From NCBI GenBank assembly GCA_017654855.1, contig CM030332.1:5828001-5892000 (forward strand): 64,000 nt of DNA, read 5' to 3'. Of this stretch, positions 1,677 through 45,700 are shown one piece after another (positions within the stretch are counted from its first letter, which is position 1; each line of letters opens with the position of its first letter). The notes under the pieces were generated by a model. The model saw only the letters and a program-made list of their open reading frames with translations. It did not search any database and was not told the DNA's origin. The DNA comes from Podospora anserina. Lineage: Eukaryota. The position numbers and the translations under genes are program-made.

Positions 1677-3056
1677 GATGGTGGGGACATAAGCTGTGTC
1701 ATTGATCAAATGTATATATTTATGTAAAGAGCTACTCTCCCATCACATTCACCATGAGATTCCAGAACTTCTGCCCGGTGAAACGGCAAGCATTCTCAAG
1801 ACCGATGCGAGTTCAATGCGTGGGATTTCACACACAGACTGGGACGGTATAGTTCGATGTAGCGGTATATCTGAACCCATGACCCAGTTGTCAAGTACAC
1901 CTGACGTAGTATCATAGTAGACAGTAGCTTGTGTCGGGTCATGAAACTAATCATAGCGTCGTGCTTGGTTACGGCGTTTTGGATCTCGAGGTCTTCCAAG
2001 CAGGGAAAGTGCAGCTTCCCCAGAGGCAGCAGGCACTTGAACCCGGCCGGACTTAATGACAGTAAGAGCTTTCGAACCTTTGGAAACAAGGAAAGAAAGT
2101 CAGTAGCGGTCGTACCATGGGCATCCCGGACAGCGAATGGGTTGATTCGCAAATCTGTGACGTGCTGTAAGGAAGCGTCTTGCTAAGCCTTGTGCCCGAA
2201 TATAACTTGGAGATCAAGCTGCGTATTGACGGGGAAGAGGTGGAGACATGATAGCACAGGTCAAAGAGTGTCCTCAATCTTGTTATCGGGATTGAGAAGC
2301 ATCCAGATTCTCTCTATTAATCTGGCGTACTGCGGGTTTTTTGGGTTTGCCCCATCCGTATTTCCTCAATGTTGCCACCGTCAGCATTCGAGGAATTGAA
2401 TGAGCTTAGTTCCGTAATAATAGCCTGTATGGTTTAATTGCGCTGATGGTTAGAAGTCGCGATGGTTTTCGTGGTGGTTGGATAAGTAGATGGCTAAGGT
2501 ATGCTAGCAACGAAAATCATTAAGTTTAATAATAAGCTCGGGCACTGTAAGTAGGCCAGTGTAGCTCGTAGGTACTTCAGGAGTAATGTTTTAATACCAT
2601 TTTCAATTAAGATTTACTATAATAAACCCTAACCCATATAATAAAGTGCCCCTTTAACAATATCAAGGTGCCCGTGGAGTAAGTCCTATTAGAAAAGCCT
2701 GAAGAGGGAGTACACGAGCAGGAAGAGGAAGAGGAGGAACAGGGGGGAATAGGAGGAACAGGAGGAATAGGAAGAAGGGGCGGCTGGAACCAAAGTCGAA
2801 GATAAACAGTCTTTAAGGCCTTGTGTAAGGACACCTTATACTTTCCGATATAGGTTTTTCACTTGGCCTACACGGCACGGTTTTCCTATATAAATACCAG
2901 CAAAAGGCCCGGCGCATTCGTTATAAAAAAGGTTAGAACGGTGTAGGAAAAATAAAAATATATTAATCTATTAGCCAGCAAAAGCAACGCAAGTCTCGCG
3001 GTAGTAAACTTTTAAGTCATAGAGTGCATAAAACAAAAATACCGTTCTCTGACAGA

Positions 3057-5333
3057 TTATCCACCATGTGATGGGGTTGCCCTCGGACTCCTGTCCATCT
3101 GCTTAAAAACGTACCTCGCCTCGCGCCCGGTAATTTCCGTTAAGTACGAATTTGGTGTCTCACGCTTCCTCTTCGGTTTTGAGAGCCTGGAAACCGCTCG
3201 AGCCTTGAGAGGTGGGAAGAGGTGGGCTCGGTCGAAGTCGATGATCATTATGCGACAACGCTCGGCGTTCCAGAGATAATTGGCCCTATTGTCATCCCCA
3301 TGATCAACACCCTCGCTCCAGATGGCCGTCAATGACTCCCTCTTCAGCGTCTCGGCGTCGGCCATGCTAGCGCTTGGCGTCTGGCCCGCCCACGACATGA
3401 GCATCATGTAAACAACAAACTCGAGCCCCGGGAGAATGTAGCCACGATCGAGGCGCACGAGGCCCAGATGCACCGGTACCACGTCGCCCTGAAGATGATC
3501 AAGCCGTGCGTAGACCCGGCCTTCGTGCTCCAAACGACTAAGGCGGTCCTCCAGTGTTCCTTTGCCAACAAATGTGTAGCCGTATGGAAAAAGCTCCAGC
3601 TTAAAAAGCCAGCCCATTGCTCCTCTCTTGTCCCAGAAGTCCACCATCCGGCATCCCTTGTAGGGACTCAAGAGAAGCTGCTGCTTCACCATATCGGTAA
3701 AACGATGGGCATTGACGGGATGCCGAGAGGAGCCATCGAAGCGATGTAATGAGACATTGGGGCAATTCTCGTCCAGGTCTTTCCCTCTCTTGAGACCTAA
3801 TAGGCACGCTTGTGTGCAGTATTGCCTGGTGGGCTCCGGGTCAGCCATAGCGATATCCTCGTCCTCGCCACCACTCGACGGACCGCGCTTCCGCTTATTA
3901 GCCGCCAGCCTTGAGCGAGATGCGCCGGGTTCCGAATGGTCCTCGTCGTGTTCGTCATGCTCGTTGCCTTGGGGGAGTACCGCTGCCGGTTTGCAAGACG
4001 ACTGAGACCGCAAGGCCACTTTCCGACCGGTCGGTTTCGCTTCGGATGTATACTCTGAGTTTTCCGTGTTCTGCGACGACGCCGCCGACGATAACTCGGG
4101 GGGCTCGAGCCCAAGATAGGCCACATCCGCGTACGACTCCGACCATGTTTTCAGTGTCGCCTTGGCTACTGACAGTGCTGTTTCGAGAGATTGTCCCTCG
4201 AGAGCTTCGGACTGAAAGCTGGACAGGCAGAAGCTGACTAGTTGAGCCACTGCGGTGTGGGATAGCCGATCGGTCCAGTCGTTGGTCGGCTCGCCCACAT
4301 CGTCGGCCGGCAGGCACGGATGACAGTACAGCGTTTGCCAATCATCTCTGTCAACGTAGAGGAGTAGCAAGCACCGGCCCGCAGCAACATAACCATATGA
4401 TACCCCGTAGGTGATCATGTAGTCGAAGACTTGCGTCAGTGCCATGGCGATGAATGCCTCGGCCTGCTCCCGGCGTTGCACCTCCTCGTCGCGGCTGAGC
4501 TTGTCGTCGTTGATGCGTGCGACGACCTCGTGGAACAGGTGTTCCTTCGCCGTAGCTGACCGAACATGCTCGATAGCGACTTTATGGGCTGCCTTGTAGT
4601 CGTATATAAAGGCCTGGGTCTGGCCTCCGCCGGGTTGCATCCGTATGCCGACTCCGTCAGGCTGTCTGTTCGAGCATATGTATTTCCTCTTGGACGTAGG
4701 GCGCTTATTCGGCCCGGCTTGTTGGCGTCGCTCCAAACTCCCATCGCTGGTGTTGTCATCTGCACCGCTACTCCTGTCATCTTCTTGTGTGAGCTCGCGG
4801 AGGTTAGCGCTGAACCGAAACTCGGGGCATCGATATGCTTTGCCCGCCTCCTCATGCGTTGCAAGAACCTTGAGGATCCCCTGTACTGGGCGCTCGACTG
4901 CATCTACCTCAAAACGGTCGATCGCTTTCTCGTTGCCCGCTAGATGATCCGAGATAATCGTCCCAAGGTTCTTAGTCGTGCTGGCTGGTTCGAAGAGCTG
5001 CCTTTGACCACAGATCTTCTGCACAAGATCGAAATAACGTGGGTGGAGGACGTTGGTAAAGTTGGTCCAAGGACGAAGTCGCTTGGGGTAGTACTTGCCC
5101 ACGACTTTCGTATAGCCCGTAGAAGACCTCGATGTGTCGGTAAGTCGTAGAGCGTTGTAGAGATGCCTGTGGCAGTTGCGCAGGTATTCGAGGAACGTGG
5201 TCTTTCGATGCTCCAGCTGAAGCCGCTCCTTCTCGCATCGCTCTTGCGCCTCTCGTGCCTTGGCTTCCTCCTCTCGTGCCTTGGCTTCCTCCAGCTTACG
5301 AAGGAGCTGTGTAATCCTGTCTTTGTCGGACAT
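3057..5333 (-). CDS. Spok: Spok-family meiotic drive (spore killer) toxin-antidote protein, 758 aa
   Basis: Starts MSDKDRITQLLRKLEEAKAREEEAKARE (coiled coil), then TTFLEYLRNCH...GKYYPKRLRPW. Nuclease-like region QPDG...YDYKAAHK, Cys cluster QYCTQAC...DENCP, kinase-like C-terminus YTFVGKGT / HGDDNRANYLW / IIDFD. Matches the remembered Podospora SPOK architecture. No internal stops. Confidence 0.93.
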   Translation of the reverse strand: MSDKDRITQLLRKLEEAKAREEEAKAREAQERCEKERLQLEHRKTTFLEYLRNCHRHLYNALRLTDTSRSSTGYTKVVGKYYPKRLRPWTNFTNVLHPRYFDLVQKICGQRQLFEPASTTKNLGTIISDHLAGNEKAIDRFEVDAVERPVQGILKVLATHEEAGKAYRCPEFRFSANLRELTQEDDRSSGADDNTSDGSLERRQQAGPNKRPTSKRKYICSNRQPDGVGIRMQPGGGQTQAFIYDYKAAHKVAIEHVRSATAKEHLFHEVVARINDDKLSRDEEVQRREQAEAFIAMALTQVFDYMITYGVSYGYVAAGRCLLLLYVDRDDWQTLYCHPCLPADDVGEPTNDWTDRLSHTAVAQLVSFCLSSFQSEALEGQSLETALSVAKATLKTWSESYADVAYLGLEPPELSSAASSQNTENSEYTSEAKPTGRKVALRSQSSCKPAAVLPQGNEHDEHDEDHSEPGASRSRLAANKRKRGPSSGGEDEDIAMADPEPTRQYCTQACLLGLKRGKDLDENCPNVSLHRFDGSSRHPVNAHRFTDMVKQQLLLSPYKGCRMVDFWDKRGAMGWLFKLELFPYGYTFVGKGTLEDRLSRLEHEGRVYARLDHLQGDVVPVHLGLVRLDRGYILPGLEFVVYMMLMSWAGQTPSASMADAETLKRESLTAIWSEGVDHGDDNRANYLWNAERCRIMIIDFDRAHLFPPLKARAVSRLSKPKRKRETPNSYLTEITGREARYVFKQMDRSPRATPSHGG
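5249..5292. repeat. 21-bp tandem repeat (x2) encoding the EEAKARE heptad of the Spok coiled coil
   Basis: cctctcgtgccttggcttcct repeated exactly at 5249-5269 and 5270-5290. Confidence 0.9.
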
Positions 5334-5448
5334 TGCGTCCGCTAGACTCGGCTGCTTGGGGCTGGAAGGGATGTCGTGATGATGTATGGCGGCGATTGGA
5401 CGGCGGAAGCTTCCGTCGGTCTGATGGCTCGAGGTCTGTATTATATGT

Positions 5449-5504
5449 CTGTTAGCCATCAGCGAAGCCTTAACGTATCAGTCTCATCAGATGAAGAGAA
5501 GTAC
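5449..5504 (-). other. Probable 5'-UTR intron of the Spok gene
   Basis: Minus strand AAG|GTACTT...GCTAACAG (56 nt). It contains the upstream ATG (5459) used by the ORF track, which supports 5333 as the real start. Confidence 0.55.
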
Positions 5505-6272
5505 CTTAATCTTGTACAGAGCGTAGATATCGAGTTAATATGTACGGGGTAAATGTGGTGGTCGCGCCGAGAGGGGAGAAGAAATGGGGTCTGGTTTATG
5601 TAGATATGCGGAAGTCAAGCGCAAGGTTGAGCAGTAGTCCTGCCGCGCCTGTTACGGCTGGCAGGTTCTCTGAGGTAAAGGACTATAGAGAAGAAAGAAG
5701 GAAAGGCTCCGCCAAGCCAGAGCTTGCAGAGCTTCGAGGTGCAAGCTGGTGGGGCGCTTGATAAGATAAGGTCCTCGAATGTGGAGCCACGCTGGAAGTG
5801 GGGTGCCAACACCATAACCCCCCCAAAAAAAACCCTCGCTTCCTAATACCAATAAACAAGCGAGCTTTATAAAAAAAAATTGCTACTTCAAAGACTGGAA
5901 TTTATACCGGACTACATCACTTGCCTCGCAGTCTTATCGAAAAGCCTTATTAACGAAGGCTTTTGTTGAAAAGACCAACAGCCACGACTCCCCCGAATCC
6001 TCAGTGAGCCCCACTTCCTCCCACATACCCTCAAGCCTGTGACCGCACCCCAAACCAGTATCTGGTCGACCCAATTGTTAATCCTTTTTTGGCTAACAGC
6101 AAGGGGAACAATACTCCAGCCTGTAGTCCCGGCAACCGAAAAAGGCCCAGCCAACAAATTCGCATCGAAAACCAGAAATTGGGTCGTGATGCCAGTCGTT
6201 GTATTGGGGGCCGCGTGTGCATTTACATCCATTCTCGCTCAGTATCTACCACTCTGCTATCCGTCCCCTTGA

Positions 6273-6911
6273 CTACATGCGGCCCTGCCTGTGCCCGTCG
6301 TAGCTCTGCTCCTGTGCGGCTATTGCTGCCGCTTTACTAGGCCGGATCCAGTCCTTGTCTGTGACGTTGTAATACAAGAGGTCTCCCTGCTCGTTTAGCC
6401 CCGAGGGAAAGGCCCCCCCCCGGTCGTGGGTAGCACTTCTACGGCACTCTGTGCCATGCCAAGCACAGTTGCCGCACTTGCCGTTGTCGATGCTGGGTTG
6501 CGAAACGCAACCCAGGAACGGATACGCAACGGGCGAACGGCGCTCAGGTTTGCCATGCCTTCGGTCGGGCACAGCAGTCGTATATTGGCCCTGGCGGCTT
6601 GCGCAGCACAGACATTGCTCATCGTTCCTGGCCGGCATCAGGCAGTTAGCCAGCCGTGCCTAACAGAAGGGGGAGGGAATGGGGGCTTACACCTCACCGA
6701 GTGACTGGATGATCAGAGCTATCGCGCGTGCCCTTGAGGCGCACGCTTCGGCTAAGATTCTGCCAAATGGCAGGCCATTATAATGCTCAACAAATACCGG
6801 GCGGACACGGAATTTGCAGGATAGCCAATTGATGGAAAGTAACTGCACGAGGTCGGAGTCGACGCCAAGCTCTCTTGCAAGAGCTGTGAACTCGGCCTGC
6901 GTCGATGGCAA
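6273..6911 (-). CDS. DUF3716-like Cys-rich (zinc-binding) protein, probably two exons
   Basis: ALIIQSLG...CLCC...PFLGCV...GKCGNCAW...C pattern. A GTAAGC...CTAAC...CCAG intron (about 6628-6690) joins ORFs 6687-6911 and 6273-6638. Confidence 0.5.
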
Positions 6912-13350: not shown

Positions 13351-16300
13351 ATGGATGATCGATCGGGAGGCGAAGGTACAAAGCGACCGGCGCCGAGCCT
13401 CTGCCTGATTGATACCGACACGACTATCACGAAGCGCAGGCGGATGACGCTCGAATACCTACACCAGCGCCCTTTAACGGGCGGAAAATGCGTTAATCTG
13501 CGAGACGTCCAAGTGCTACTGCGGCAGGACGGCAGCCGGCAGACGCTGTACACCGACATCGTGGCCCATTGGGCTACGGATTACGCCACGGCGACCACGG
13601 ACGGCCGGCTCCAGCCAGAGCACATCGATTGCGATAAGATGTTCCGCGATCTCAAGCTCTATGCCGGTATCCAGGAACACAGTGACGCCGAGGTCAAGAG
13701 TCAAGTCCTGGCAGCGTATGTGGAGTCGGCAGCCGGCAGCAGTGACCACGAAGACTACGTCCGCGATGACGAGAGCCAGGACAGCAGTATCGCCTCAGGT
13801 CGGTACGACATCCGAACGGCCGGGGACCTGCGGGTCTTGTTTCTCCACCTCAGCAAGTGCGCAGCTGCCCGATAGGACGGGAGCCCAGACTTACCCTTGC
13901 TGGAACTCGTCGTACGGAATGTTGAAGCAGCGACCACCGAGACAGGCCCCGCAGCTAACGTCGCCGAGGTCGATAAGGTCGCAGCACCCACCGCAGATAG
14001 AGATAAAGAAGAGCCGCCTAGTCCACAGTACGAGCCCGACCAACCACCCACGCCTCAAGATATAACCCCCATCTACGCCACAGCTATCAACGAGGACGGT
14101 AACGACGTCGCAGAAGATGTCGACAATATATACGGCAATATCAGCGAGAGTGTCAGCGAGGCGGCCAAGACGGGCTGTGAGTTTAGCGACAATACTCGGA
14201 CGATAACTCGGTGGTGTTTATATCCGAGCGGTCCCTTGCGTTGACGGATAATGACCAAGCATCGCCGGGATTATACGACAGTGAGGCGGACAGTGAATAC
14301 GGAACCGCCGCCTCCGTAGCGAATTCTCTGCAGAGTCTCAGCGCGGCTCTCTGCACTATAGATGACACAGAGCGCTGGGAAGCCACGTGCAGGCTCTTCT
14401 GCCACAACCAGGCACACACCGCACACGACCAGGGCGCCAAGCTGCTAGGGACGAAACGCCGCCTCCGCCCTTACCAGATGGAGGCGGCCTACGAGCTACT
14501 ACAGCGGAGCTTTGGCGGGCAGTTCGACGGCGGCATCATGGCGCTCGGCACCGGGCTGGGAAAGACTGTCGCCAGCCTGGCCGCAATCGCCATCATGAGG
14601 CTAGTGGAGCTTAACAATTCCGAGGTCAAACAGGACTGGGACATCGGAGTCACCGCCAACCGTCGGCACAACGGCCCGGGGATGATGGGACCTTGCCCAT
14701 CAGGCAACCCGTGGAGCATTGAGTGCTGCTGCGTAGCCGGCTCGCTCAGTTCCAAAATCGCCCTCCAGCTGGGACCCGGCCCGTCGCTCATCCTCACCCC
14801 GGCCGGCATCACCAGCCAGTTCGCCGGGGAGGCTACCAACTACCTAGAGAAGCAGGTCCAGCGGCCGGAATCGGACACTTGCATCCCATTTGTGGACACG
14901 ATTGACGTGAGCGCTAACTCTACCCTCGCACGCGACATCCGAGATGACATCCTGACGGGCTTTATCGGGGACCAACCAATCTACATGGCACCAAAGAAGG
15001 GGGACCTGCAGGCAGTGCCTGCATTTGTGCAGGGCTCGGGGTCCCAGATGGGATACACGGCGGGCCAGGTGCAACAGCTCTTCTGCAAGCACCGGCTCCT
15101 GGTCGTCAGCAGCAGCCCTCTCTCGCTCTTGGCAAAAGGGGAGGACTACCGCTCAGGCTTTGCCCAGGCCTACGACTTGCAGCAGCAGCAGAGAAGGGCG
15201 GCTAAGCGGTACATTGCTCGGTGGGCAGTGGCGCCGAGGTTTGTTATCCTGGACGAGTTTCACACCGTCAAGGACAAGGCGACCGTCGTGTACAAAACAC
15301 TGCAGCAGATCCGGAGCCAGGCCGCTCCCGGCCATAGCTTCAAGCTCGCGGCGTTAAGCGCGACGCCGATCTCCGTGTCGCTGCAGCGGAGCCTGAGCTC
15401 GGTACTGTCGCTCATCTTGCCCGGCGGCGTGGACGCGTTCTGCGGGGCCGCACAGATTATCGACTCTGCAACAAAGGCCGGCAAGCCCAAGGACGTGGAC
15501 AAGTACAATGACGCCATCACCACATGCTGCAAGCTGCTCGGGAGCATCATGACGCTCCGTACAACGAGGAGCCTCTTCCATGGCAACGTGCTGGTACCGC
15601 TCCCCAAGCTCCATTCCAGACAGATCCCCTGCAGATCTGAGAGGGCGCAGAGGGACGACTTCCGGCGTAGGTTGGGCGAGCTGACGGCGGCATGGAGCCA
15701 GGAGATCCGCGCCAGTCTCCGGAACCAAGCGCCCGAGAGCGACGACGCGCTGCAGGACCGCTTCTTCAACTTCGTCCGTTACAACCCGTCATTCATGCTA
15801 ACACTCTGGCTTGCATCATTCCCAGGCATTGTTGACCTGCCCGACGAGCTTTCGTCCAACCCGGGCGAATGGCTGAATAGCGACAAGCTCGGCAATACCG
15901 TCGCTACAAGTGAGGGACGCGCCGACCATACCGTCGGCCGGTATATCGACATCATCACGGGCGGGAGCGGGAAGATAGAGCAGCTCAGTCAGTGCCTGGG
16001 TCGGGCCCGCAAGGACCTCCACCGCAGTTGCGCAGGGGACGACGGCCAACCGGCCCCGGTGCTCAAGAAGCACGCCTGCGTCTTCGCCTCGCGGCCGGGC
16101 ATCGCACTCATCGTCGCTGCATACGCAGACAAGCACTGGGCCTCGGAGTGGGAGGTCGTCATGGTTCTCTCGGCGGCCACCCCGGAGGGGAAGAAGGCGA
16201 TCGGCGGAGCCTTCCATGACATCCCGATCGGCAGCGTAGAGAAGCCCACGCTCTTTATCGCCACCGTCGGTACGTGCGGTACCGGTCTCGACAGCCTCCA

Positions 16301-16541
16301 GAAGGCGAACCACGCTGTCCTCTTTGACCTGCCCTTTGTCGAGTCCGAGAGAAAACAGGCCAGAGGTCGCATCTGGAGGTCTGGACAGCGGTTTCCCTGC
16401 TACTGGACCGAACTCTGGGCGGCCGATAGCGACGCTGAGGTCCTGATTAACGACCGCCACGAGAGACGCATGGAGGCATTCAACCGGGTCCTGAGTTGCC
16501 ACAGCGGCGACAGCAGTCGGGCAGAAGGGAATGAGCAGTGA
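13351..16541 (+). CDS. SNF2-family helicase/ATPase (about 1035 aa model with one intron; one in-frame TAG at 13873-13875)
   Basis: Motifs LGTGLGKT, ILDEFH, LSATP, GTGLDSLQKAN, QARGRIWRSGQ in ORF 14211-16541. Upstream frames 13351-13872 and 13876-14176 are collinear and join through a GTGAGT...TTGAC...AAG intron at 14177-14259. Confidence 0.8.
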
Positions 16542-18178: not shown

Positions 18179-19440
18179 ATGGAACACCGACGGGGCACAT
18201 CCATATCGTACTTCGATCGCGAAAATTCGCACGCAGTAGGATCTTTCCGGTCTCCACCTATTGATACTGCACCTATCCAGTGTGTCTGTTGCACCAAGTC
18301 CGGAAGATACTGTACTGGTATCACTCAGGAGAAGCTTCAATGTGGGTGTCTGGTTACCCTTAACGTTCTCGAAACCATCCTGATAATAAGGTATATTTAG
18401 GTATTAAGTGTGAAGAGGAAGATCGCCGTTGCTTTTTGCCGCTACCATCACACTTCCACAGCGCTTTCTCGGGCGCCGACAGAGATACGGACGATTCGCT
18501 CTGGACATATCATTACCTGTTCTTCTCCAGGCTTACGCCCCCTGGCCCCACCCAGAAAGAGCTCCTCGATGCAGTCTACCGTGCTTGCCAAGCTTGTCTT
18601 GCCACGCTCTACGCTATACTGTCTCTATGTCCACACTCTGAAAGCCAGGATCTGGCTGAGAGAAGCGCTTTGTATCATGCTCAAGCACAGAACGGCGCTG
18701 AAGAGAGCATTTGGATCCCGTTTTCTGGCTTTGTTCGGTCTTTGATGGAAGGGAGCGTTTCAGTACAGCATATGTCCACCCTCTGGGATAAGCTGCGAGA
18801 AGCGGAATATATCCCGCCATACATCTTCGAGTTCGCATTGCGCAATGTGCGTATATACAACTTTGCCATCGATGTTATTCCAATGGATGTGGATTATTCG
18901 AGTTTCCGCAGCTCACCACCGACACCTGTTCTTGACAGCGAATGTATGCAATTCCTCCCATGGATCTGCGAACTCCGGAAGGGACCGCTGGATAGCGGAG
19001 GTTACTATGTCTGGAAAGACATGACTGCTTCAAAGGTCAAGCGTCACATGGGCCCTGAACTTGAGCTATACCTTGGGGCACTCGATATACATATCGCTCA
19101 GCTATGTTCGCAGCTGTATCAGCATCAGCTGAAACCTTTGTTCAACCTGCTAGACAACTTTGCCTCTGGACCCTACAACAACTTTTTTCTTCTACTTTTC
19201 CCGTGCTTCCTGGTTGGGTTGGCATGTCGCGAGAAGCCTCACCAAGAACGACTGAGGAAGCACATCTTGCAGATAAAGCAGCACACGCAATTCAGTAACG
19301 CTATGGCGGTATTGGAGTTTTTAGAGTACATTTGGCATCTGGACATTGCAGAACGCTGGGCTCTTTATTCAAGTATATATGCGGTGTTCACGCTACCAGG
19401 GTTGTTCGATAAATCTACCCTACCTCAAAGAGAATATTAA
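18179..19440 (+). CDS. Fungal transcription-factor-like protein (partial Cys cluster plus Fungal_trans_2-like C-terminus)
   Basis: Exon 1 carries CVCCTKSGRYCTG, followed by an intron (about 18342-18400). C-terminal LLFPCFLVGLAC...FSNAMAVLEFLEYIW. TATA-like TATATAA near 18084. Clear paralog at 31799-32989. Confidence 0.7.
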
Positions 19441-29778: not shown

Positions 29779-31000
29779 TTGCTAAAGAACCTATCGAAAG
29801 TCTGTACAAGAGCGTCACCGCCAAAAAATCTTTGCTCAAGCAGCTCGTCTTTTTTCAGTGCCATTGACGAGAAAGCTGCGAAAATCCTTGCGGATGCACT
29901 TGCGCGTTACCCAAACAATGTGTCGCTTTCGAAAAAAGATTTCAGTCGGGTCTACAAATTCCTTGAAATGGTATTTATTCCGGGTGTCCTCGGAGATACC
30001 ACAAAGAGACGTTGCTTCCAACAGCTGAAGCATGAAATACTCCCTGCCGTCGGGGTCCTCCTTAAATCGAACGATATCGCCGACAACGCTACGAGGTAAC
30101 GACAAGGAAGAAGTTGTCGGGCCGTAACCAGCCCAGCGCCTCCTTGATAAGCTTGGGGTCAAACCTGCGGAGTTTAGAATACCCCGACACCAGATGCTCG
30201 CGCGGAATGGGCTTTTGCATCCTTTGGCTAACCGAGCTCGCAAACCGGTAAGCTCGCAGCCTAGCGGAAGAGTCCGGACTGGGTACGTTTGCCCATTGTA
30301 CCACTAAACTCTGGAATGAGTACGAGGAGGGGGTCTCAGCTGTTTCTCGGATTGTCCATAAGTCGACAAGCTCCAGGCACTTACTCAAGCGTACCTTTAC
30401 TCCTGCCGGTATCCTGAACTTTCTCAGCTCGTTGACTTCAAAAGCCACCGAGAGGAAATCATGGATCCCTGGCTTGGTAAAAGAGCAGACGAAATTCTTC
30501 GGGCATGGGATGCTGCTGATTCGCGTAGAATATCAGATTTGGTCTTCATCTTCGTAGTGGGTGGACCTGGAGTCGGGAAGGGGACTCAGTGCGAACGAGC
30601 CGCGCGGCATTTCGGCTTGAAACACATCTCTGTTGGTGATCTGCTGCGCCGCGAAGAGAGTCTGCCCAACTCCCTATACAGGAACTTCATTAGAAAAAGC
30701 TTCCGCGAAGGCTTGCCAGTCCCGCCAGGATTGGTTATAAAACTCCTCAGTGTGGAACTTCAAGAATTAGGTGCAGATAGAAACCGTATGCGTGGGATGA
30801 TTCTCGATGGGTTTCCACTCAGCGAAGACCAGCTTCAGGCATTTGAAGAAGAGGTACGCCGATGCTTGGCTTTAAATCCAGTGAGGTACCTGGCCATAGA
30901 AACTGCTAGAAAAGTGACCTCAGATTTGGTATTGCGTATGTGGCTGCGGAGGATCAACATTGATTTGTGGGGCAAGTCGAGCGCTAACATTTATTACCCT
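29779..31000 (+). pseudogene. Degenerate HD-hydrolase-like plus adenylate/UMP-CMP kinase fusion
   Basis: Kinase motifs GGPGVGKGTQC, HISVGDLLR and ILDGFP in ORF 30461. Upstream, LWNEYEEG...IVH /frameshift/ VDKLQALTQAYLY leads in frame into the kinase ORF and resembles the C-terminus of HDDC2/YfbR-type HD domains. Confidence 0.6.
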
Positions 31001-31286
31001 GGCATAGGTGTATCTCCTGGCGAATGCCCCACTCGAGCGGCAAACTCGCGAACGCCAGCCGGCGAGGCTGCAAGACGAAAATTGTGGTGGGAGCCGCAGA
31101 CGATGCAGCACTTCACTGGTTGAAGCGATCTTGCTAACTGGTTAGCGGATTTAAAAATGGTCGGAACTAGCTAATGCTGTGCAACACACAAGCATCACCG
31201 GGGACGCGCTTGTGAGTATAATCTCGTCCCCCTGCTGTGCGGTCCCAGCTAATAGAATACTCCTGTCGGGACACGGCCATACCGTC

Positions 31287-33066
31287 ACTTACTTGCTGAA
31301 AACCTCTACCAAAACGCTCGCGATTGACCGAAAGCTCTGGAAATATATACATTGTAGTACCGTTTGACCTCGATGAATTTCTCGGCGGTAGCATCTCTGC
31401 GGTCTCCTACTACGCCTATCCGGTGCCTCAACTGCACCACGTACAGAAATTGTTGTACCGGTATTACTCAAGAGAACCTTCAATGTAGGAATTTACCTCC
31501 TGTGTTCCCAGAAACCGTCCTGACACTACTTTTAGGCGATGAGTGTAAAGATCAGGAGCTCCATTGCTTTTTACCGCTACCGTCCAGCTTTCACAGCACC
31601 TTCTCGGCCTCCGACATAGACAGAGATAAAGACAACTCGCTCTGGACATATCACTATATATTCTTTCTAAAGCTTACGCCCCCTGGCCCCGGCAAGCGAG
31701 CGCTGCTCGATGCGGTGTATCGTGCTTGCCAAGGTTGTCTCGTCACACTCTACGCGATACTATCCTTATCATAGATATTGCTAACGAAGTGAGCTTTGTT
31801 AAGCTGGTAGAAAGCCATCTGTTGTATGCTTGAACCAGTTACACGGCCAATACAGAGCCCAGCGTGCCTTAAGCTCTAGACGCCAGATTTGTTCCAAAAA
31901 TGCTAACACGCCTATGGCGTCCCTGAACTGCGTGTGTTTGATGATTTCCAGGATAACCCCTTTTATACGTTCTTGGCCAGGCTCCTCCCGACATGCAAAA
32001 CCAACAATGAAGCATGGGAAAAGTAGAAGAAAATAGTTGTCGTCGGGTCCGGAGGCCAACTGATCTAGCAGCTTGAACACAGATGATAGCTGATGTGGCT
32101 GCGAACAGAGTTGAGCAACATGTATGTCGAGTGCCTCACGGTATAGCTGAAGTTTAGGGCTTAGGTTGGGCCTGGCCTTTGAGTGAAAAATGTCCTTCCA
32201 GGCGTAGTAGCATGCCGCATCCAGCGGTCCCTCCCGAATTTCACGGACCAATGGGAGAAACTTCATACATTCCTCGTCAAGAATAGACGTCGGCGGCAAG
32301 CTGCGGAAGCTTGAAAAATTCACATCTATTGTGGTGCGATCGGCAAAGTTACAGATACGCACATAGCGCAGCGTGAACTCAAAGATAGATGGCGGTATGC
32401 ATTCTGCGTTACGCAGCTTATGCCAGAGGTTCGAGAGATGCTGTAGTGGATTTCTCCCTTCCATCATCGACCGAACAAGGCTAGAAAATGGGATCCAAAT
32501 GGTCCCAGCGCCATTGTATGCTTGTGCTTGAGCATGAAAAAAAGCGCTTCTCGCAACCAGATCCTTGTTGTCGGAGTGTGGACATAAGGATAGTATCGCG
32601 TAGAGTGTGACGAGACAACCTTGACAAGCACGATACACCGCATCGAGCAGCGCTCGCTTGCCGGGGCCAGGGGGCGTAAGCTTTAGAAAGAATATATAGT
32701 GATATGTCCAGAGCGAGTTGTCTTTATCTCTGTCTATGTCGGAGGCCGAGAAGGTGCTGTGAAAGCTGGACGGTAGCGGTAAAAAGCAATGGAGCTCCTG
32801 ATCTTTACACTCATCGCCTAAAAGTAGTGTCAGGACGGTTTCTGGGAACACAGGAGGTAAATTCCTACATTGAAGGTTCTCTTGAGTAATACCGGTACAA
32901 CAATTTCTGTACGTGGTGCAGTTGAGGCACCGGATAGGCGTAGTAGGAGACCGCAGAGATGCTACCGCCGAGAAATTCATCGAGGTCAAACGGTACTACA
33001 ATGTATATATTTCCAGAGCTTTCGGTCAATCGCGAGCGTTTTGGTAGAGGTTTTCAGCAAGTAAGT
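31287..33066. repeat. 483-bp near-perfect inverted repeat (arms 31287-31769 and 32584-33066, 814-bp spacer)
   Basis: Arms are reverse complements; only one mismatch was noticed (ttgccaagg vs ttgtcaagg). Identical N-terminal translations appear on opposite strands in the ORF track. Confidence 0.95.
31799..32980 (-). CDS. Fungal transcription-factor-like protein, paralog of 18179-19440
   Basis: CLNCTTYRNCCTG, SLWTYHY..F..LTPPGP, LLFPCFIVGFAC...FLEQIW. Collinear similarity to the 18-kb gene over its length. Confidence 0.7.
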   Translation of the reverse strand: MNFSAVASLRSPTTPIRCLNCTTYRNCCTGITQENLQCRNLPPVFPETVLTLLLGDECKDQELHCFLPLPSSFHSTFSASDIDRDKDNSLWTYHYIFFLKLTPPGPGKRALLDAVYRACQGCLVTLYAILSLCPHSDNKDLVARSAFFHAQAQAYNGAGTIWIPFSSLVRSMMEGRNPLQHLSNLWHKLRNAECIPPSIFEFTLRYVRICNFADRTTIDVNFSSFRSLPPTSILDEECMKFLPLVREIREGPLDAACYYAWKDIFHSKARPNLSPKLQLYREALDIHVAQLCSQPHQLSSVFKLLDQLASGPDDNYFLLLFPCFIVGFACREEPGQERIKGVILEIIKHTQFRDAIGVLAFLEQIWRLELKARWALYWPCNWFKHTTDGFLPA

Positions 33067-37316: not shown

Positions 37317-40132
37317 ATGAATATCCCCCACGTGAATACGAATCCCCTGATGAAACAATATGCGGAAATATTCGAGCTCAGGCAGCTTGGCGAGGACAAC
37401 GAACAGCAATTACGCCGCAGACTTGATAGGGAAAGGATGGCCCTTAACGCCCGGTACCGAACCGACAGAGAGATGTATATCGCCTTGGAGGGTCATCCTG
37501 AGCTTCACGCTGGCGTAGAGAGGCTGTTGGAAGAGGTGACCACATACAAGAGCGAAGAGCTGGATCGTCAGTATTATGAGGATATTGCAGCCCTCAGAAA
37601 GCGCTATAAGGATCTGGAGGCCAGCAAGTGGCAGACCGTACTAAATATTGATGTACTTCCCTCAACCGCAAGCCTTCTTCCGGTGAGCATTTGCTGGAAA
37701 CACCATGGAGTTGATAATAACTTGCTAACCAGATACATCCAGATGTCCGCGGCTAAAAGGGCTCAGTCAGTCATGCCATCTTCAGCCGCCCCGTCCAACA
37801 AAGTCCAGGGGCTAATGGCTCCAAGAGTCTCTGGCTATGATCGAGGCTTCGGTGGCTCTTCAAAACTTATCAGGCACGGGCCTCAGACCATTGCATCACA
37901 CGATCTTTCTACCATACAGGCGAACGGATCGCGAAAAACTTCGGGGCCATCCATGCATGCCGACTCTGCATCGGTCTTGCCTTCCATATGGCCCGTTGAC
38001 CATCCCATGGCACAAATGCCTCCTGGACAACTCACCAGAAACGACCACCGTATCTTGCCGGGGACGCCAACCACTAACGGGTGGCTAAGATATCAAAATT
38101 ATGCTTCTGCATCCCCGGATAGAATCCCACCGCTCCATCCTTCTTACCTCAAGGGTGATGGGGCTGTGAACGGTTCAGCGACTGAACGCCAAGTTTTGCC
38201 TCCAATTCTTGGGCCTCAATCCTATCATCGTTGTCATGTGGATGAAACAGTACGTCCTGTGGAAACATGACTTTGGTCTTTGATAGTACTAACCCCGTGA
38301 AACAGCCTAAACGGAAAGCCACGCTCACGGATTCGGCCACTCCCGATGTTAAAAGGGTAAAGCAAGATCATCCCTCTAATAGTGCGGACCTCGACCGGTC
38401 AACGCCCACAGGCAATGAAGATGTTCGTCCACAGAGAACCGTTCACTTCAATGAGGTCTGGGGGAACGGGAACCCGGAGTACAAGCACATCATCATCCAG
38501 TTCCCCGACGGTGGAGATTACTACATCCTTCGCTGCGAAGAGCATGGTGTCAACTTTGGGGAGCATCCACTTCGAGGAGCTGCCAAGCACCTGGCCAGTG
38601 CTCAGCATGGACGCCTGTCGAAGGAGCACACCCAAGCTATCAGAAGACTCGGCTGGATTGTGGAAGGGTGTAATAAGTATTTGATGGCTATAAACAACAA
38701 GATGGTCATCAAAGCCTTCAAGAATGGTTACAAGCCTTTCAACGCCAATCAGCTCAACAAGGCCGAGAGGGCCAAGAATGGCTTACCTCAGCTTGATAAG
38801 CACGGGGTCCCTATCACCAGCCCACTGAGCACGACCGCAGCTACGCAGCGGAAACCGGGCTCTAGCATTCATAACCCAACCCCGGCCGGGCTTTACACGG
38901 GCTACTGCGTTACTGACCAACAGCAGCGCCCTGCTGTGGTTCGTCCGTGGGAACAAGATAATCTCAGCTTGGCTGGCATGACGACTGCTGACAGCCGCCG
39001 AACTAGTGTTTCGAACTATGATATGACAGAGGCCGACAAGCAACCATTGCACCCCAGCGCGCAGGCCATAGCTGCTCAAGCCCTTAGCAACCTACAGACC
39101 CCCTCGCGGAGTACTGGTCTCACAGCGATCAATTCCCGGAGCGCAGCATCCAGCGCCGAGCCCCCCTCACGACTAGCGACTTCCGAGCAGTCTCCAGCTG
39201 TTGTTGTGCGCAAGCGCAACCCGGCTAGCCTGCAGCACATTTTATGGCTGGATGGTGCGTCGGTTCATTTGGAGGCTCCTGCCCAGCCCAACAACGCACT
39301 CGGGACCCCGATTTTGTCACCACAGCCCCTGTCCTCGATAGTCGTCAACAGCGGGCCAATGGCTTCTCAGGGCGGGTCTGGTACACAGTTCACAGTCACG
39401 GAGCTTTCTTCTGACAGCCCGCCCTACCGAGTGAGGCGTGGGGACAATCCGGGCGACCCGATCCACATCTCTTCGCCACCCCTGCAAACTGAAGAAGTGG
39501 TTATGGGACTCACTTTACCAGAGCTTTCTGGGACTATTGGAGAGCAACTCGCAACTTTGATTAAGTTTGGCGTCTCTCACTGGCCTCGAGACGACTTGCT
39601 TCAGTTTAAATCCGGGGAAATGATCACGGGACGTATCCTACATGAGCTGTTGAGTTTGGAACTTAAACAGTTCGGAGAATACACCTTGGGAGTCCCACCT
39701 CAGAGGGCGGCAAAGGTCACGGCAGGAGAGAGTATTGTCAGTATTGTCATGCCATACAACGTTAACGATAATCACTGGGTTATTGCTATTATTGATAAGA
39801 AACGAAAGACGTTTACCGCTTACGGTATGACCGAGGATATGCTGAACGAGTACAAAGTAGCCTATCAAGATGCACTTGAAGTTGGCCACCTTGAGGCAAC
39901 TTTACATCCTCTCCAGGACTATACCGGTAACACCTGCGCCTTTCGGTGTTGTGATGCTTTAGCTAGGTACCTTGGGACACGACCAGCAATGATGCTAAAC
40001 CCGCTTTCTCTTCGATTATTCTACCTTCAACGCCTTTTGCAATCTCGCCTTTATGACAGCGTATCTGTCCCACGACCACCATATGGAAGGGGTGGGGATG
40101 GATCGGCAGACGACAGGCACCCAACCACCTAA
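37317..40132 (+). CDS. About 900-aa protein with C-terminal Ulp1/C48-like cysteine peptidase domain
   Basis: In-frame introns 37683-37742 and 38250-38305 join ORFs 37317 and 38267. C-terminus IVMPYNVNDNHWVIAIID...LQDYTGNTCAF (HW and Q-x6-C). Central Cys/His motif ILRCEEHG...AAKHL...H. Confidence 0.6.
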
Positions 40133-41053: not shown

Positions 41054-41117
41054 TGCTGAGATGGTCAGCACTTATCAAAGCGCAAACGTCCCTAATCGCG
41101 GCGTCCTCCTTTATCAT

Positions 41118-42750
41118 CTGGGCTGCTTTTTTTCTGGGTGCTGGAGCTGACCAAAACTCTGCCTGTCCACAGTGTACCTTTCATCCCGCGCACAGGCTCC
41201 CCAGACTGCCACTGCCACGCTCAACAGACAAGCCAGCAACGACCTCCTTTCTCCTGCATCGTGCCCGTCACTTTCTCCATCACCCTCCCCTTACGCGCGC
41301 TCAGTGTCTTCCGACGACAGCTTCTGCGATCCACGCAATCTGACTGTCGGCTCTGTCAATTCCACTCTTGCTCCAGAATTTGCGGCTCTCCCCGCTTTTT
41401 GCCTGGGTGAGGAAGAGGATCAAAAATTCGTGCTCAGGGGCGATTCGTTTATCAGCTCCCACAACGCGTCCACCATCTTCACTAGCCAGGACCTGCACCG
41501 CACCCTTCCCTCCAGCTTCACTACTGGTGACCTGTCAGACTTTGACTCTGACGACGAGTTCCAAGGCCTTGCCATCTTGAGCGAAGCCCTCGTGTCCCAG
41601 GCCAGCAGCCGGTCGCGTTCCTGCAGCGAGACCAGCTTCAAGTGCGAGGAAGACTTTGAGGACAGCGACTCCTTTGCTGCCAGCTACCTGCCCAGCCCAC
41701 CAAGCTCGTGCGAGGACGCCGACGAGCATCAACCCAAGAGGCAAAAGAAGTCTGCCGACAGCTGCTGCAGCAAGTCCACCATGAACGCCGCTGCTGAGGC
41801 CGAGGCCTAATCAGGGGCTGCTCAGGACCAGTCCCAGACCCCGGCCAACCAGGACAACACCACCAGCGAGGCCCAAAACAACAACTCGGGTGCCAACTCC
41901 GCTTCTCCCGATACCGCTGACACCCCCTCCGGCACCCCCGCTGCTCCCACCAACCGCCGTGGTCGCAAGCAGTCCTTGACCGAGGATCCCTCCAAGACCT
42001 TCGTCTGCGAGCAGTGCAACCGCCGGTTCCGCCGCCAGGAACACCTCAAGCGTCACTACCGTTCTCTCCCACACCGAGGACAAGCCCTTCGAGTGCCACG
42101 AGTGCGGCAAGAAGTTCTCTCGCTCTGACAACCTTTCCCAGCATGCCCGCACCTACGGAGCCGGTGCCATCTCTCTCGACCTTCTCGATGGCTCCGACAT
42201 GGCTGCCGCCGCCGCCGCCGGTCACCTAGGTCAAGGGTATCCACACCCTCACGGCATTTCTCTTGCTCCCGACTACCACACGCTCGGCCATGTGTTGTTC
42301 CAAATTAGTGCTGAGATCCCAGGCAGCGAGTCGTCGTCGGATGAGAGCACCGAGTCCAGCAGGAAGAAGCGCAAGAGGTCAGAGTAATGGAACGCAAAAC
42401 TTGCTCGATCAGCCTTTTATCTATTCAATTCTCTGCACACTCTTCATAATGTCGGTGGTTCTCGCATTAGAACGTACCGTCGCCATTGATGCCCGGACAT
42501 GACTGCCACGACGCGTTGTTTCATCGGGCCTGGGTCAACACATCAACATTTACATATATACACTGGGGGTTTGCTCTTTTTCATCAAGATAAAGCGAGGC
42601 GGTGGGACACCATTTGGGATTCTTTTTTCATGGCGCAGACGTTTTAACGCCTTTTGGCAGGAACTCAGCAGGCAAAAAGGATGGGTTGGTGTTTGTTTGT
42701 TATTTTATATCTTTTTTAGTCTTCATGTGTGTGACATTTGTTTTTTTGTA
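41118..42750 (+). pseudogene. Truncated inverted duplicate of the Seb1-like gene (exon 2 plus 3' UTR)
   Basis: Reverse complement of 58184-59815. Starts inside the intron. CAA>TAA at 41808, +1 C near 42069, and His>Tyr in the second zinc finger. Confidence 0.92.
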
Positions 42751-44599
42751 TCAATGTCCACAAACACTTCATGTACCACCACCAACTTCCGCTCTGCACC
42801 CGCGCCTTCGTACCCTTCCAGGAGAAGGACGAAAAGCTTTACATCGCTACGAGGAATTCTTTCCAGTATCTTCTCATGGTAATAACTTCGTCTAGCAAAC
42901 CACTATAATTCAATATCTCTCAAAATCAATAACCAGACCACTTTTATCGTTTGCATCGTGGTTGATATTGCAGTATCTGTTATTTCCACCATCATCTATA
43001 TAATGTTGCAGCAAGACTCCAAGAAACAGCTTCTCCGCTTCCAACAGCGCATTGAGTAAGGAAGATTTATAATACTGTTCAGTGTAAGTTTATTACTAAC
43101 GATATCGTGGATTATAAAGTTAACTTTTATATAGCTAGGTTTGAACGGCGGTCTTAATAAATTGCGGAGTTATTTGGTCGGTCTCTTCTTTCCATTCATG
43201 TGGAGGATTATGGCGGTATTACTCTTATCGCTAAAGACTACGAGGTTCAATGGAAGGATCTTCGGTCTCTTTACCTGCTGAAAGAGCATACTAAATACAA
43301 TAGCGCGCAAATCAGAGGATGTTTATAGAGATAGAAACAATATTCGTTTATGCCCAGTGTACCTATCCCACAACTACCTAAGCTAAATGTGCCGATGAAA
43401 ATTGAAACGTTGGGATGATATATAAAGCTAAACCCAGAGATTTTACTGCATGAGAAGAATTATAGATGGAAATCCGCTTCCAGACCCCTTCTCCTATTCA
43501 TGCATGATAATCTCGAGTCCACATGGATCCCCCTCGTATGTAGAGAGGAGGCTCTCGCTCGCGCCATGCTCTGCGAGAGCCCGGCGAAATAATTCGAGTT
43601 GCTCAACACTAGGGTGAGGTGTATCGTGACCGTCATTGCATTCTTCAAGTTCGCAGAGGTCAATCCGGTGTATAACATATTTGAGGTCGTCGATTGTGGC
43701 ATTAAAAGCCACTTCATCATCTTCGGATTCAGTGTTCAACACTCCCATAACCTGCTCTATTGTCGAGTCGTTGTCGGTCAGATCCGGCAAGTATGCGGCA
43801 CCGCCGTGGCCACGATCGGGGGAGGGCACCCTCGAGTTGTTCTGGTCAAGGTCGTAAAGGAATGCCATCGAGTTGTCTTATGGGATGTATTCTGGGGTTC
43901 TTGTTAAATAAGTGATTGTCAATTGAAACTCTGAAATGGGTAGGAAGAGTCTTACTAGTAGAATCTTGACCAAGAGAGCCCCAATGGCAAGGGTTAGACT
44001 GGAATGGAGACCTTCGAGGAAGGACGACTCAGCAGGTCAAGAGATCCAAATACAGGCACACACTCCACCCTCTTGTGTCTCGCATGTCTCGCACTAGTGA
44101 AGAGAGGGAACTTATGCATGTTTGTGAAAATGACGAAGGAAACCTGGAATGTGCCATGCCGCTGCCGATCTTTGTGATATCTGATATCAGTGGGGGGGTT
44201 GGGGGCGGGGTTGGCAGGGGCTTAGTGGCAGGGATTTCTGCAGTAGGAGAAACCGCATGCGCACCGTCTCGTAAGGTCTTCACCCAACCTGAACGGTATA
44301 CCCCGCACTGCTTGAGAGGTCCTGCCATGGCGTGGTTCGCCACATCCTCATTGATGACGATAGAGAGATGTTCCGTACCACCAGCATCAAGATCATCTGC
44401 AACAAGCTCAAGGCTCGGTTCAAGCCAGACTACTCGCAAGCAATGGACGTTCTCAAGTCGCCCAAATTCAACCTGTACGACATCTACGCTGGCAGAAATA
44501 TCAGAAATCCAGACCAATCATGTAGATGTTAGGTCGAGCTGGACGTCCTTTTGTCGTTTTTTTCTTTTTCTGATAGAGCAAGTGTTGGTGGTGAGAGTG

Positions 44600-45700
44600 T
44601 TGGGAGACGGAATAGGCAATGGCCGTCTGACTGCAGGAGACTGGGACAAGACTCTAACTTACACGAATGTCTTTCACACCGACGTCTTAATGGTTACTTT
44701 GTTGCTGGGAAACTTAAGGGATGCTCTGGAGAAAACGGTCTACTTAAGGCGCATTTTAGAGGCAAAATGTGCAGTTCGGGACGGTGTTGAGTATTTTGAA
44801 CCTATTGGCGGTCATATCGAGTTTGTTGACGTTGGCTTTGCCTACTCCGATAATAAGATGGTCCTGAAGAACTGCAATTTGTCTTTCCAGCCTGGTAAAA
44901 TAACTGCGGTTGTGGGTCCATCTGGGGTTGGGAAGTCGACTATACTTAAGCTGATATTGAGAGCCTACGATCCGCATACCGGCTTCGTTAAGATTGATGG
45001 GCAAGACATCAGGAAACTTCGTCTTAATGCGTAAGTGACTTACCAACCCGCTAATGTACTGAGACTAAGACCAGGATGTGTCTAGCCTGCGGTATCGGAT
45101 AGCGGTTATGGAACAAGAGCCGTATCTCTTTAACAGAACTATTCTGGAAAATGTGAGATATGGGAAGTAAGGCGCTACAGACAAAGAGGTCCACGAGGCT
45201 TGCAAGAAGGTCAACATCCATGATTGTATCACGAGTCGCCAGAAAGGGTACCAGGAAGTAATCGACCATGGACGGTAAGTTTAAATTACATTTATGGCGT
45301 GGAACGATATTAATCGAGTGCAACTTAGGGGATGGTCGGGCGGGGAGAGACAAAGGTTTGGACTAGCTCGCTTGTTTGTCCAAACCCCCGATATTGTTTT
45401 TATAGACGAGGGAACCAGTGCAATCGATCCCGACACTAAGACGCAAATAAACATCAACTTAAGAGAGTTGTTTCAAGGGAAAACAACAATTATTATTGCG
45501 TATGTACCTATATCTTTTTAAGAAGGTCACTACTAAATAGCCGACTGCTTCTAGGCACCGATTATCCTTAGTCAGACACGCCCACAACATATTACGGTTA
45601 TCAAGTAATGGGCAAGTCTATGAAGAGGGAACTCATAAAGACCTTATGGATAAGAAAGGTGGTTATTATTCACTTTTTCAGCAGCATCGTAGTAATGAAT
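44600..45700 (+). pseudogene. ABC half-transporter (ABCB, HMT1/ATM1-like) 3' part
   Basis: IEFVDVGFAY, Walker A GPSGVGKST, SGGERQR, VFIDEGTSAID. Stops and frameshifts; no 5' half adjacent. Confidence 0.75.

Follow-up and report, generated by a model that had tools for sequence, protein, structure and literature searches.

A Podospora anserina Enterprise element carries an intact spore killer gene that is very probably the known Spok4

Near the start of the window, i.e. the whole 64,000-nucleotide stretch of Podospora anserina DNA that we analysed, lies an intact gene of the Spok type. As the original prediction had it, positions 3057-5333 form one uninterrupted frame: read on the minus strand, which the prediction had not specified, they encode 758 residues followed by a stop, with zero internal stops, and the opposite (plus) strand of the same interval is riddled with stop codons. 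Upstream of 5333 the frame stays open as far as an ATG at 5459, which would yield a product of 800 amino acids. We discarded this longer product, as that ATG lies inside a 5′-UTR intron. A published primer for deleting the Spok3 intron joins both sides of a 69-nt intron (PMC6660238; this and all other articles are cited from the parts of their text available to us), and a Spok2-type contig in sequencing run X5 skips approximately positions 5436-5504. Therefore, 5333 is the right start and the protein of 758 residues the right product. The coding region bears no RIP signature (composite index -0.38). The locus and its surroundings comprise the following features:

2664-2683, plus strand: perfect match to the published DownSpok4_R primer, 393 bp downstream of the stop codon (0 matches in 100 shuffles)
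2835-5986, no strand assigned: segment in common with the Spok2 copy of contig C6 (UTRs and coding sequence), 91% identical in a DNA comparison of window positions 2400-6600
3057-5333, minus strand: coding sequence, very probably of Spok4, 758 amino acids, no coding intron (open reading frame; identical entry in UniRef and NCBI nr)
3057-3161, minus strand: frameshifted tail, residues 725-758, the hallmark of Spok3 and Spok4 (53-nt deletion relative to the C6 Spok2 copy in the DNA alignment)
3210-3713, minus strand: predicted kinase-fold domain (resistance part), residues ~541-708 (model, Foldseek, VIA-align)
3294-3296 (D680) and 3630-3632 (the unusual D568), minus strand: residues of the kinase domain, together with DFD at residues 699-701 (conservation)
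3720-3818, minus strand: cysteine cluster C506-x3-C510-x13-C524-x5-H530-x7-H538, essential for resistance in SPOK3 (motif as in PMC6660238)
4134-5195, minus strand: domain 1 and predicted PD-(D/E)xK nuclease domain (killing part), residues ~47-400, interrupted by disorder at 179-221 (residue mapping, conservation, model)
4656-4658 (D226), 4599-4601 (D245) and 4593-4595 (K247), minus strand: nuclease residues, together with QxxxY at residues 301-305 (alignment to SPOK3)
5208-5333, minus strand: N-terminal coiled coil, residues 1-42, with a 21-nt repeat (alignment; repeat D3; helix 3-42 in the model)
5436-5504, minus strand: 5′-UTR intron, GT..AG, 69 nt, with the spurious in-frame ATG at 5459 (published primer Nt174-242del against the sequence)
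6297-6316, minus strand: perfect match to the published UpSpok3&4_F primer, 983 bp upstream of the start codon
14187-16541, plus strand: SNF2/DEAD-like helicase frame, in a 4.0-kb block that is duplicated at 99.1% identity ~41 kb away (L038)
C1:5790598-6038094, no strand assigned: Enterprise (Starship) element of ~247.5 kb that encloses the whole window (1-64000), placed by its ends and its captain, both outside the window

A homology search with the 758-residue protein retrieved 116 proteins at E ≤ 0.001 (query included) from 8000 scored candidates, and judging by these comparisons the resemblance to the SPOK family is not a matter of chance. Homology extends over the full length, with 96% identity to SPOK1 and 94% to SPOK3. 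The exact protein is recorded in both UniRef and NCBI nr, and its 90% cluster has six members, among them Podospora comata SPOK1, P. anserina SPOK3 and a fragment from P. pseudocomata. A Pfam scan of the protein returned 0 families; the homologue table carries a precomputed PF27653 assignment. Searching the PDB with the single protein sequence gave 0 matches, and a profile of 92 sequences gave 52 weak kinase matches, the best at E 0.012.

The residues named in the original prediction are found exactly where it placed them, i.e. K247 in YDYK (244-247), C506, C510, C524 and D680 in HGD (678-680), and the alignment pairs them with SPOK3 K240, C493, C497, C511 and D667, respectively. The roles it gave them are correct as well: in SPOK3 mutants the nuclease lysine (K240) is required to kill, whereas the kinase aspartate (D667) and the cysteine cluster are required for resistance, which acts in trans (PMC6660238). 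The remainder of the PD-(D/E)xK motif is also in place, as D226, D245, K247, Q301 and Y305 align to SPOK3 D219, D238, K240, Q294 and Y298, and the pattern C-x3-C-x13-C-x5-H-x7-H is formed by C506, C510, C524, H530 and H538. Conservation was assessed on the 96 homologues of at least 650 amino acids out of 120 other proteins. K247 is kept in 95 of these 96, most of them untested, and the same holds for D680. Such near-invariant residues thus mark an intact family member, not an active driver.

A structural model built from 92 sequences reached a mean pLDDT of 77.7 and a pTM of 0.74; an earlier one from nine sequences (pLDDT 31.3) was discarded. Apart from the gap within the killing part, the model is disordered at 407-495 and in the tail, a layout that agrees with the domains printed in PMC6660238. 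For the C-terminal domain, kinase-fold matches were obtained with Foldseek (best E 1.1e-5) and VIA-align (top Z 12.0, rmsd 2.6, 134 aligned residues). The N-terminal half had a single match among the best 50 listed, the endonuclease BpuSI (3s1s), which aligned to model residues 50..376 with a middling Z of 9.8 (rmsd 3.7, 149 aligned residues). As a lead, ‘domain 1’ may be part of the nuclease fold; 50 and 376 are only the first and last matched residues. A fold search against viral models gave kinase-type matches, besides some unnamed or polyprotein entries, and nothing informative. Both the nuclease and the kinase activity are predictions. A 2026 preprint (10.64898/2026.10.04.756499) compares AlphaFold models of SPOK3.

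The original prediction had left open whether this copy is a known paralog or has a new specificity. Primer sites, tail, repeat length and substitution counts resolve this question: the gene is very likely (we estimate about 95%) Spok4, which has been published as a single-gene spore killer from the Podospora anserina complex and travels as cargo of Enterprise/Starship (the ‘Spok block’). DownSpok4_R binds at precisely the distance past the stop that is printed for Spok4 (393 bp; PMC6660238), and the Spok3 reverse primer DownSpok3_R has no site at ≤ 3 mismatches. The upstream primer lies one base short of the printed Spok4 distance (983 instead of 984) and thereby equals the figure given for Spok3 (PMC6660238). 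The C-terminal tail is almost identical to that of SPOK3, and according to PMC6660238 the underlying 3′ frameshift is common to Spok3 and Spok4 only. At the other end of the protein, the coiled coil has the length of that in SPOK1, without any N-terminal indel between the two, and is 7 amino acids longer than in SPOK3 and 28 shorter than in the Spok2 copy. This is how Spok4 has been described, with a coiled-coil repeat of Spok1 length and a coding sequence close to Spok1 (PMC6660238).

Alignment against SPOK1, SPOK3 and Spok2 gave 19, 40 (43 with the tail) and 52 substitutions, respectively, the first figure being counted over 724 shared residues. Table 2 of PMC6660238 lists 19, 41 and 53 for SPOK4. 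To calibrate, we counted the other pairs over the shared frame (whole alignment in brackets) and obtained 42 (49) for SPOK1-SPOK3, 47 (49) for SPOK1-Spok2 and 57 (65) for SPOK3-Spok2, against 51, 40 and 54 in the same table. Since the calibration pairs do not reproduce the published values, the agreement for the gene studied here is supportive but no exact proof.

Taken one by one, the relatives differ as follows. SPOK1 (Podospora comata, A0A447CCJ8) shares the numbering of K247 and D680 but, besides its 19 substitutions, ends in another C-terminal tail (734 versus 758 amino acids). SPOK3 (Podospora anserina, A0A516F180) shares the frameshifted tail, whereas it is set apart by its 40-43 substitutions, by another downstream flank, by a coiled coil that is 7 amino acids shorter and a linker that lacks 3 + 4, and by one extra residue. 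Spok2 (Pa_5_10; C6 copy) is alike in DNA over 3.15 kb, but has a longer repeat and lacks the 53-nt deletion. In comparison with published Spok4, the 5′-UTR intron, the location in the Spok block, the primer sites, the tail and the coiled coil all agree, and the upstream primer distance is the one departure. Spok4 has been deposited as GenBank MK521589 (cited in PMC6660238). None of the other five members of the 90% cluster is named SPOK4, and by elimination the exact-match database protein is probably the MK521589 record; letter-for-letter identity with the deposited allele is presumed. The original prediction had also stated that identity to a published allele would remove novelty, and with high probability the gene is such a published paralog.

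The 36.0-Mb genome holds a second close Spok copy, on contig C6. Aligned to the Pa_5_10 (Spok2) record it shows 0 substitutions over 697 residues, which identifies it as Spok2. The PODANS_5_10 record itself has 721 amino acids and is without 54 residues of the intact 775-residue C6 frame, a gap which suggests that an intron was wrongly annotated in the reference. Spok3 was not found among the best-scoring candidates in the genome, and the window together with 40 flanking 10-kb stretches contains no further Spok besides the Spok4 copy. A distant relative is encoded on contig C8 (C8:466442-468706; L003:766-3144, minus strand), namely an intact frame of 792 amino acids with ~30% identity and EYK and HGD motifs. 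Enterprise-like left-end (C8:472236-472634) and right-end (C8:464716-465001) pieces flank this frame, as if it sat in a small decayed element of ~8 kb. PMC4022471 mentions three Spok-like genes of this distant kind. Weak Spok-like matches were also observed at C5:1523342-1525442 (two internal stops), C1:1809667-1810107 and C3:1543668-1543949.

The surrounding element was delimited by its termini. Its left end reads ATACTT(boundary)AGGTAG, and 13 dispersed matches start at this point or slightly beyond it; the dispersed repeats stop at a second AGGTAG ~247.5 kb further on. The two AGGTAG duplications occupy C1:5790592-97 and C1:6038095-100, and RGGTAG is given as the target-site duplication and end motif of Enterprise (PMC8092012). 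It follows from the end motifs and the repeat boundaries that the whole window lies inside Enterprise, with Spok4 ~40.5 kb from the left end. The captain is located ~33 kb before the window, where a DUF3435 piece (L037:4155-4637) scored 28.6 bits (Pfam cut-off 25.8) and a chromo domain was detected within L037:4595-6682; the left end and the beginning of the first frame tested are ~0.8 kb apart. This captain is Kirc. A genome-wide search for the DUF3435 family missed it and returned loci on C5 and C7 only (C5:428288-429720 and C7:1777280-1778353). These loci contain internal stops, possibly through introns or decay, and neither tblastn nor blastn matched them to the C1 captain or to the flanks. 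Compared with the Enterprise/Spok block as laid out in the available text of Vogan et al. 2021 (PMC8092012), the element agrees in having RGGTAG at both ends, a DUF3435 and chromo domain captain at its start, terminal pieces repeated throughout the genome and a duplicated helicase cargo, and in size it reaches the upper limit of the range of 110-247 kb given there; no difference was found. It carries Spok4 without Spok3, and blocks with only one of the two have been described (PMC6660238).

As regards other cargo, the helicase at 14187-16541 is probably Uhera, an Enterprise cargo gene described in PMC8092012, a name that we assigned by likeness. The window further contains frames for a cytochrome P450 (25439-27166), an adenylate-kinase-like protein (30461-31123), a weakly matching Ulp1-like peptidase (38267-40132) and an ABC-transporter fragment (44084-45034). 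Several window segments recur at 85-99% identity elsewhere in the element. A 483-nt inverted repeat (31287-31769 / 32584-33066, 99.8%) overlaps a frame of 393 amino acids (31799-32980). A 74% paralog of this frame lies in inverted orientation at 18233-19369, and the two frames match Fungal_trans_2 weakly. An inverted duplication of 1.64 kb (41111-42750 / 58184-59822, 98.9%) covers a C2H2 zinc-finger frame (58547-59152) and is adjoined by a pogo/Tc5-type DDE transposase (56411-58084). Next to the spore killer gene, a repeat of ~70 nt with dozens of genomic copies (about 5990-6061) starts exactly where the homology to the Spok2 locus ends.

The original prediction went on to call this gene a functional driver. 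That it is an intact Spok driver is supported, but the motifs from which activity had been deduced are insufficient on their own, being carried by 95 of the 96 homologues. The case for function is made instead by the identity of the gene, since it is Spok4 whose knock-in killed. The knock-in and cross-resistance tests that had been proposed are thus already in print for Spok4 (PMC6660238). Crossing a Spok4 knock-in with a Spok-free strain gave two-spored asci in 343 of 346 cases, and with a Spok2 strain in 216 of 217, i.e. killing took place despite Spok2. Spok4 and Spok3 kill each other, Spok4 confers no resistance to Spok2, Spok2 and Spok4 act independently, and mutual resistance between Spok1 and Spok4 was inferred from strain crosses (all PMC6660238). 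Point mutants, in the text available to us, were made in SPOK3 and SPOK1 and not in SPOK4. In SPOK1, whose residue numbers are those used here, an allele that has lost resistance causes fragmentation of the chromosome in E. coli, in a K247-dependent manner (PMC9972908).

Against this background, the gene would be expressed and its protein would reach every nucleus of the young ascus, as tagged SPOK1/2 were found in all ascus nuclei (PMC4022471). [quoted passage not shown] By a narrow preference, we assume that the kinase phosphorylates SPOK itself or a cognate SPOK, which would be favoured by the higher concentration in carrier spores, following one of several models considered in PMC6660238; PMC12693581 calls the mechanism of SPOK resistance undiscovered. 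Spores without the gene would die, leaving two-spored asci, and the transposon would provide mobility. From the printed crosses, the copy is expected to kill in combination with naive, Spok2-only and Spok3-only partners, to give no resistance to Spok2 or Spok3, and to share mutual resistance with Spok1.

A different outcome would be expected if the copy were a gene-converted or mutated Spok4 variant whose killing or resistance specificity departs from that of the tested allele. We consider this improbable. It draws on documented gene conversion between Spok paralogs (PMC6660238), on the one-base gap in the upstream primer distance and, above all, on residue 568. This residue is Asp here and in 0 of the 96 homologues, where Gly (81), Arg (8), Ser (5) or a gap (2) is found, and it lies just before G571-x-x-G574, presumably the glycine-rich loop of the kinase, in a region with a local pLDDT of 67. 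In run X15, a Spok4-like contig of 665 nt covering 3161-3825 differs from the window at only four positions, among them those that give Gly at residue 568 and Leu at 582. Spok4-like alleles thus appear to vary at 568 and 582, to judge from these contig data. The depth of the X15 contig is about twice that of the Spok4 flank (145 versus 70.4), and X15 also has a Spok1/2-type 3′ insertion; two Spok copies may have been homogenised over the kinase domain through gene conversion in the material of this run, as its contigs suggest. On the other hand, D568 is one of the 19 substitutions relative to SPOK1 and their number matches the published SPOK4 figure, so D568 is probably an ordinary Spok4 residue. 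Moreover, Arg or Ser occupies position 568 in 13 of the 96 homologues, which means that glycine is not required, and the window letter at 3631 is partly present in run X18 (70.6 of a depth of 147.6 differ), which may not be independent of the assembly. The protein already exists as a database record, and allelic variation of Spok4 is almost nil (PMC6660238). It would likewise be surprising if private residues, first of all D568, altered which paralogs the copy protects against.

That the copy only looks intact and is inactive or confers resistance only, through silencing or a non-catalytic loss of killing, is very improbable: the Spok2 allele of strain A, which lost killing via changes near the catalytic lysine (PMC6660238, PMC4022471), provides a precedent and no native transcript was seen in the runs compared, but a RIP signature is lacking, the tested residues are all intact, the UTRs and the intron are conserved with Spok2 at ~91%, and the primer sites that delimit the driving knock-in fragment are found on both sides. 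The expression data refer to the four of 24 runs that were compared with the window (X1, X5, X15 and X18). Two of them held sequences that we rejected as signs of Spok4 expression. In X1, bacterial expression-vector sequence is joined at 5333 and the letters are SPOK1-like, which points to a cloned relative; the contig from X5 is of the Spok2 type, and its status as RNA is a guess.

We therefore regard the gene as Spok4, and the finding as a correct rediscovery, not a discovery: Spok4, the drive it causes, the way it interacts with Spok1-3 and its transport by Enterprise are already published (Vogan et al. 2019, PMC6660238; PMC8092012). Two small leads come out of the analysis. One is the predicted model, in which the range matched to a restriction endonuclease includes the uncharacterised ‘domain 1’. 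The other is possible variation at residue 568 among natural alleles. If the private residues did alter protection, which we doubt strongly, they would offer a natural handle of only a few residues on how near-identical SPOKs tell self from non-self.
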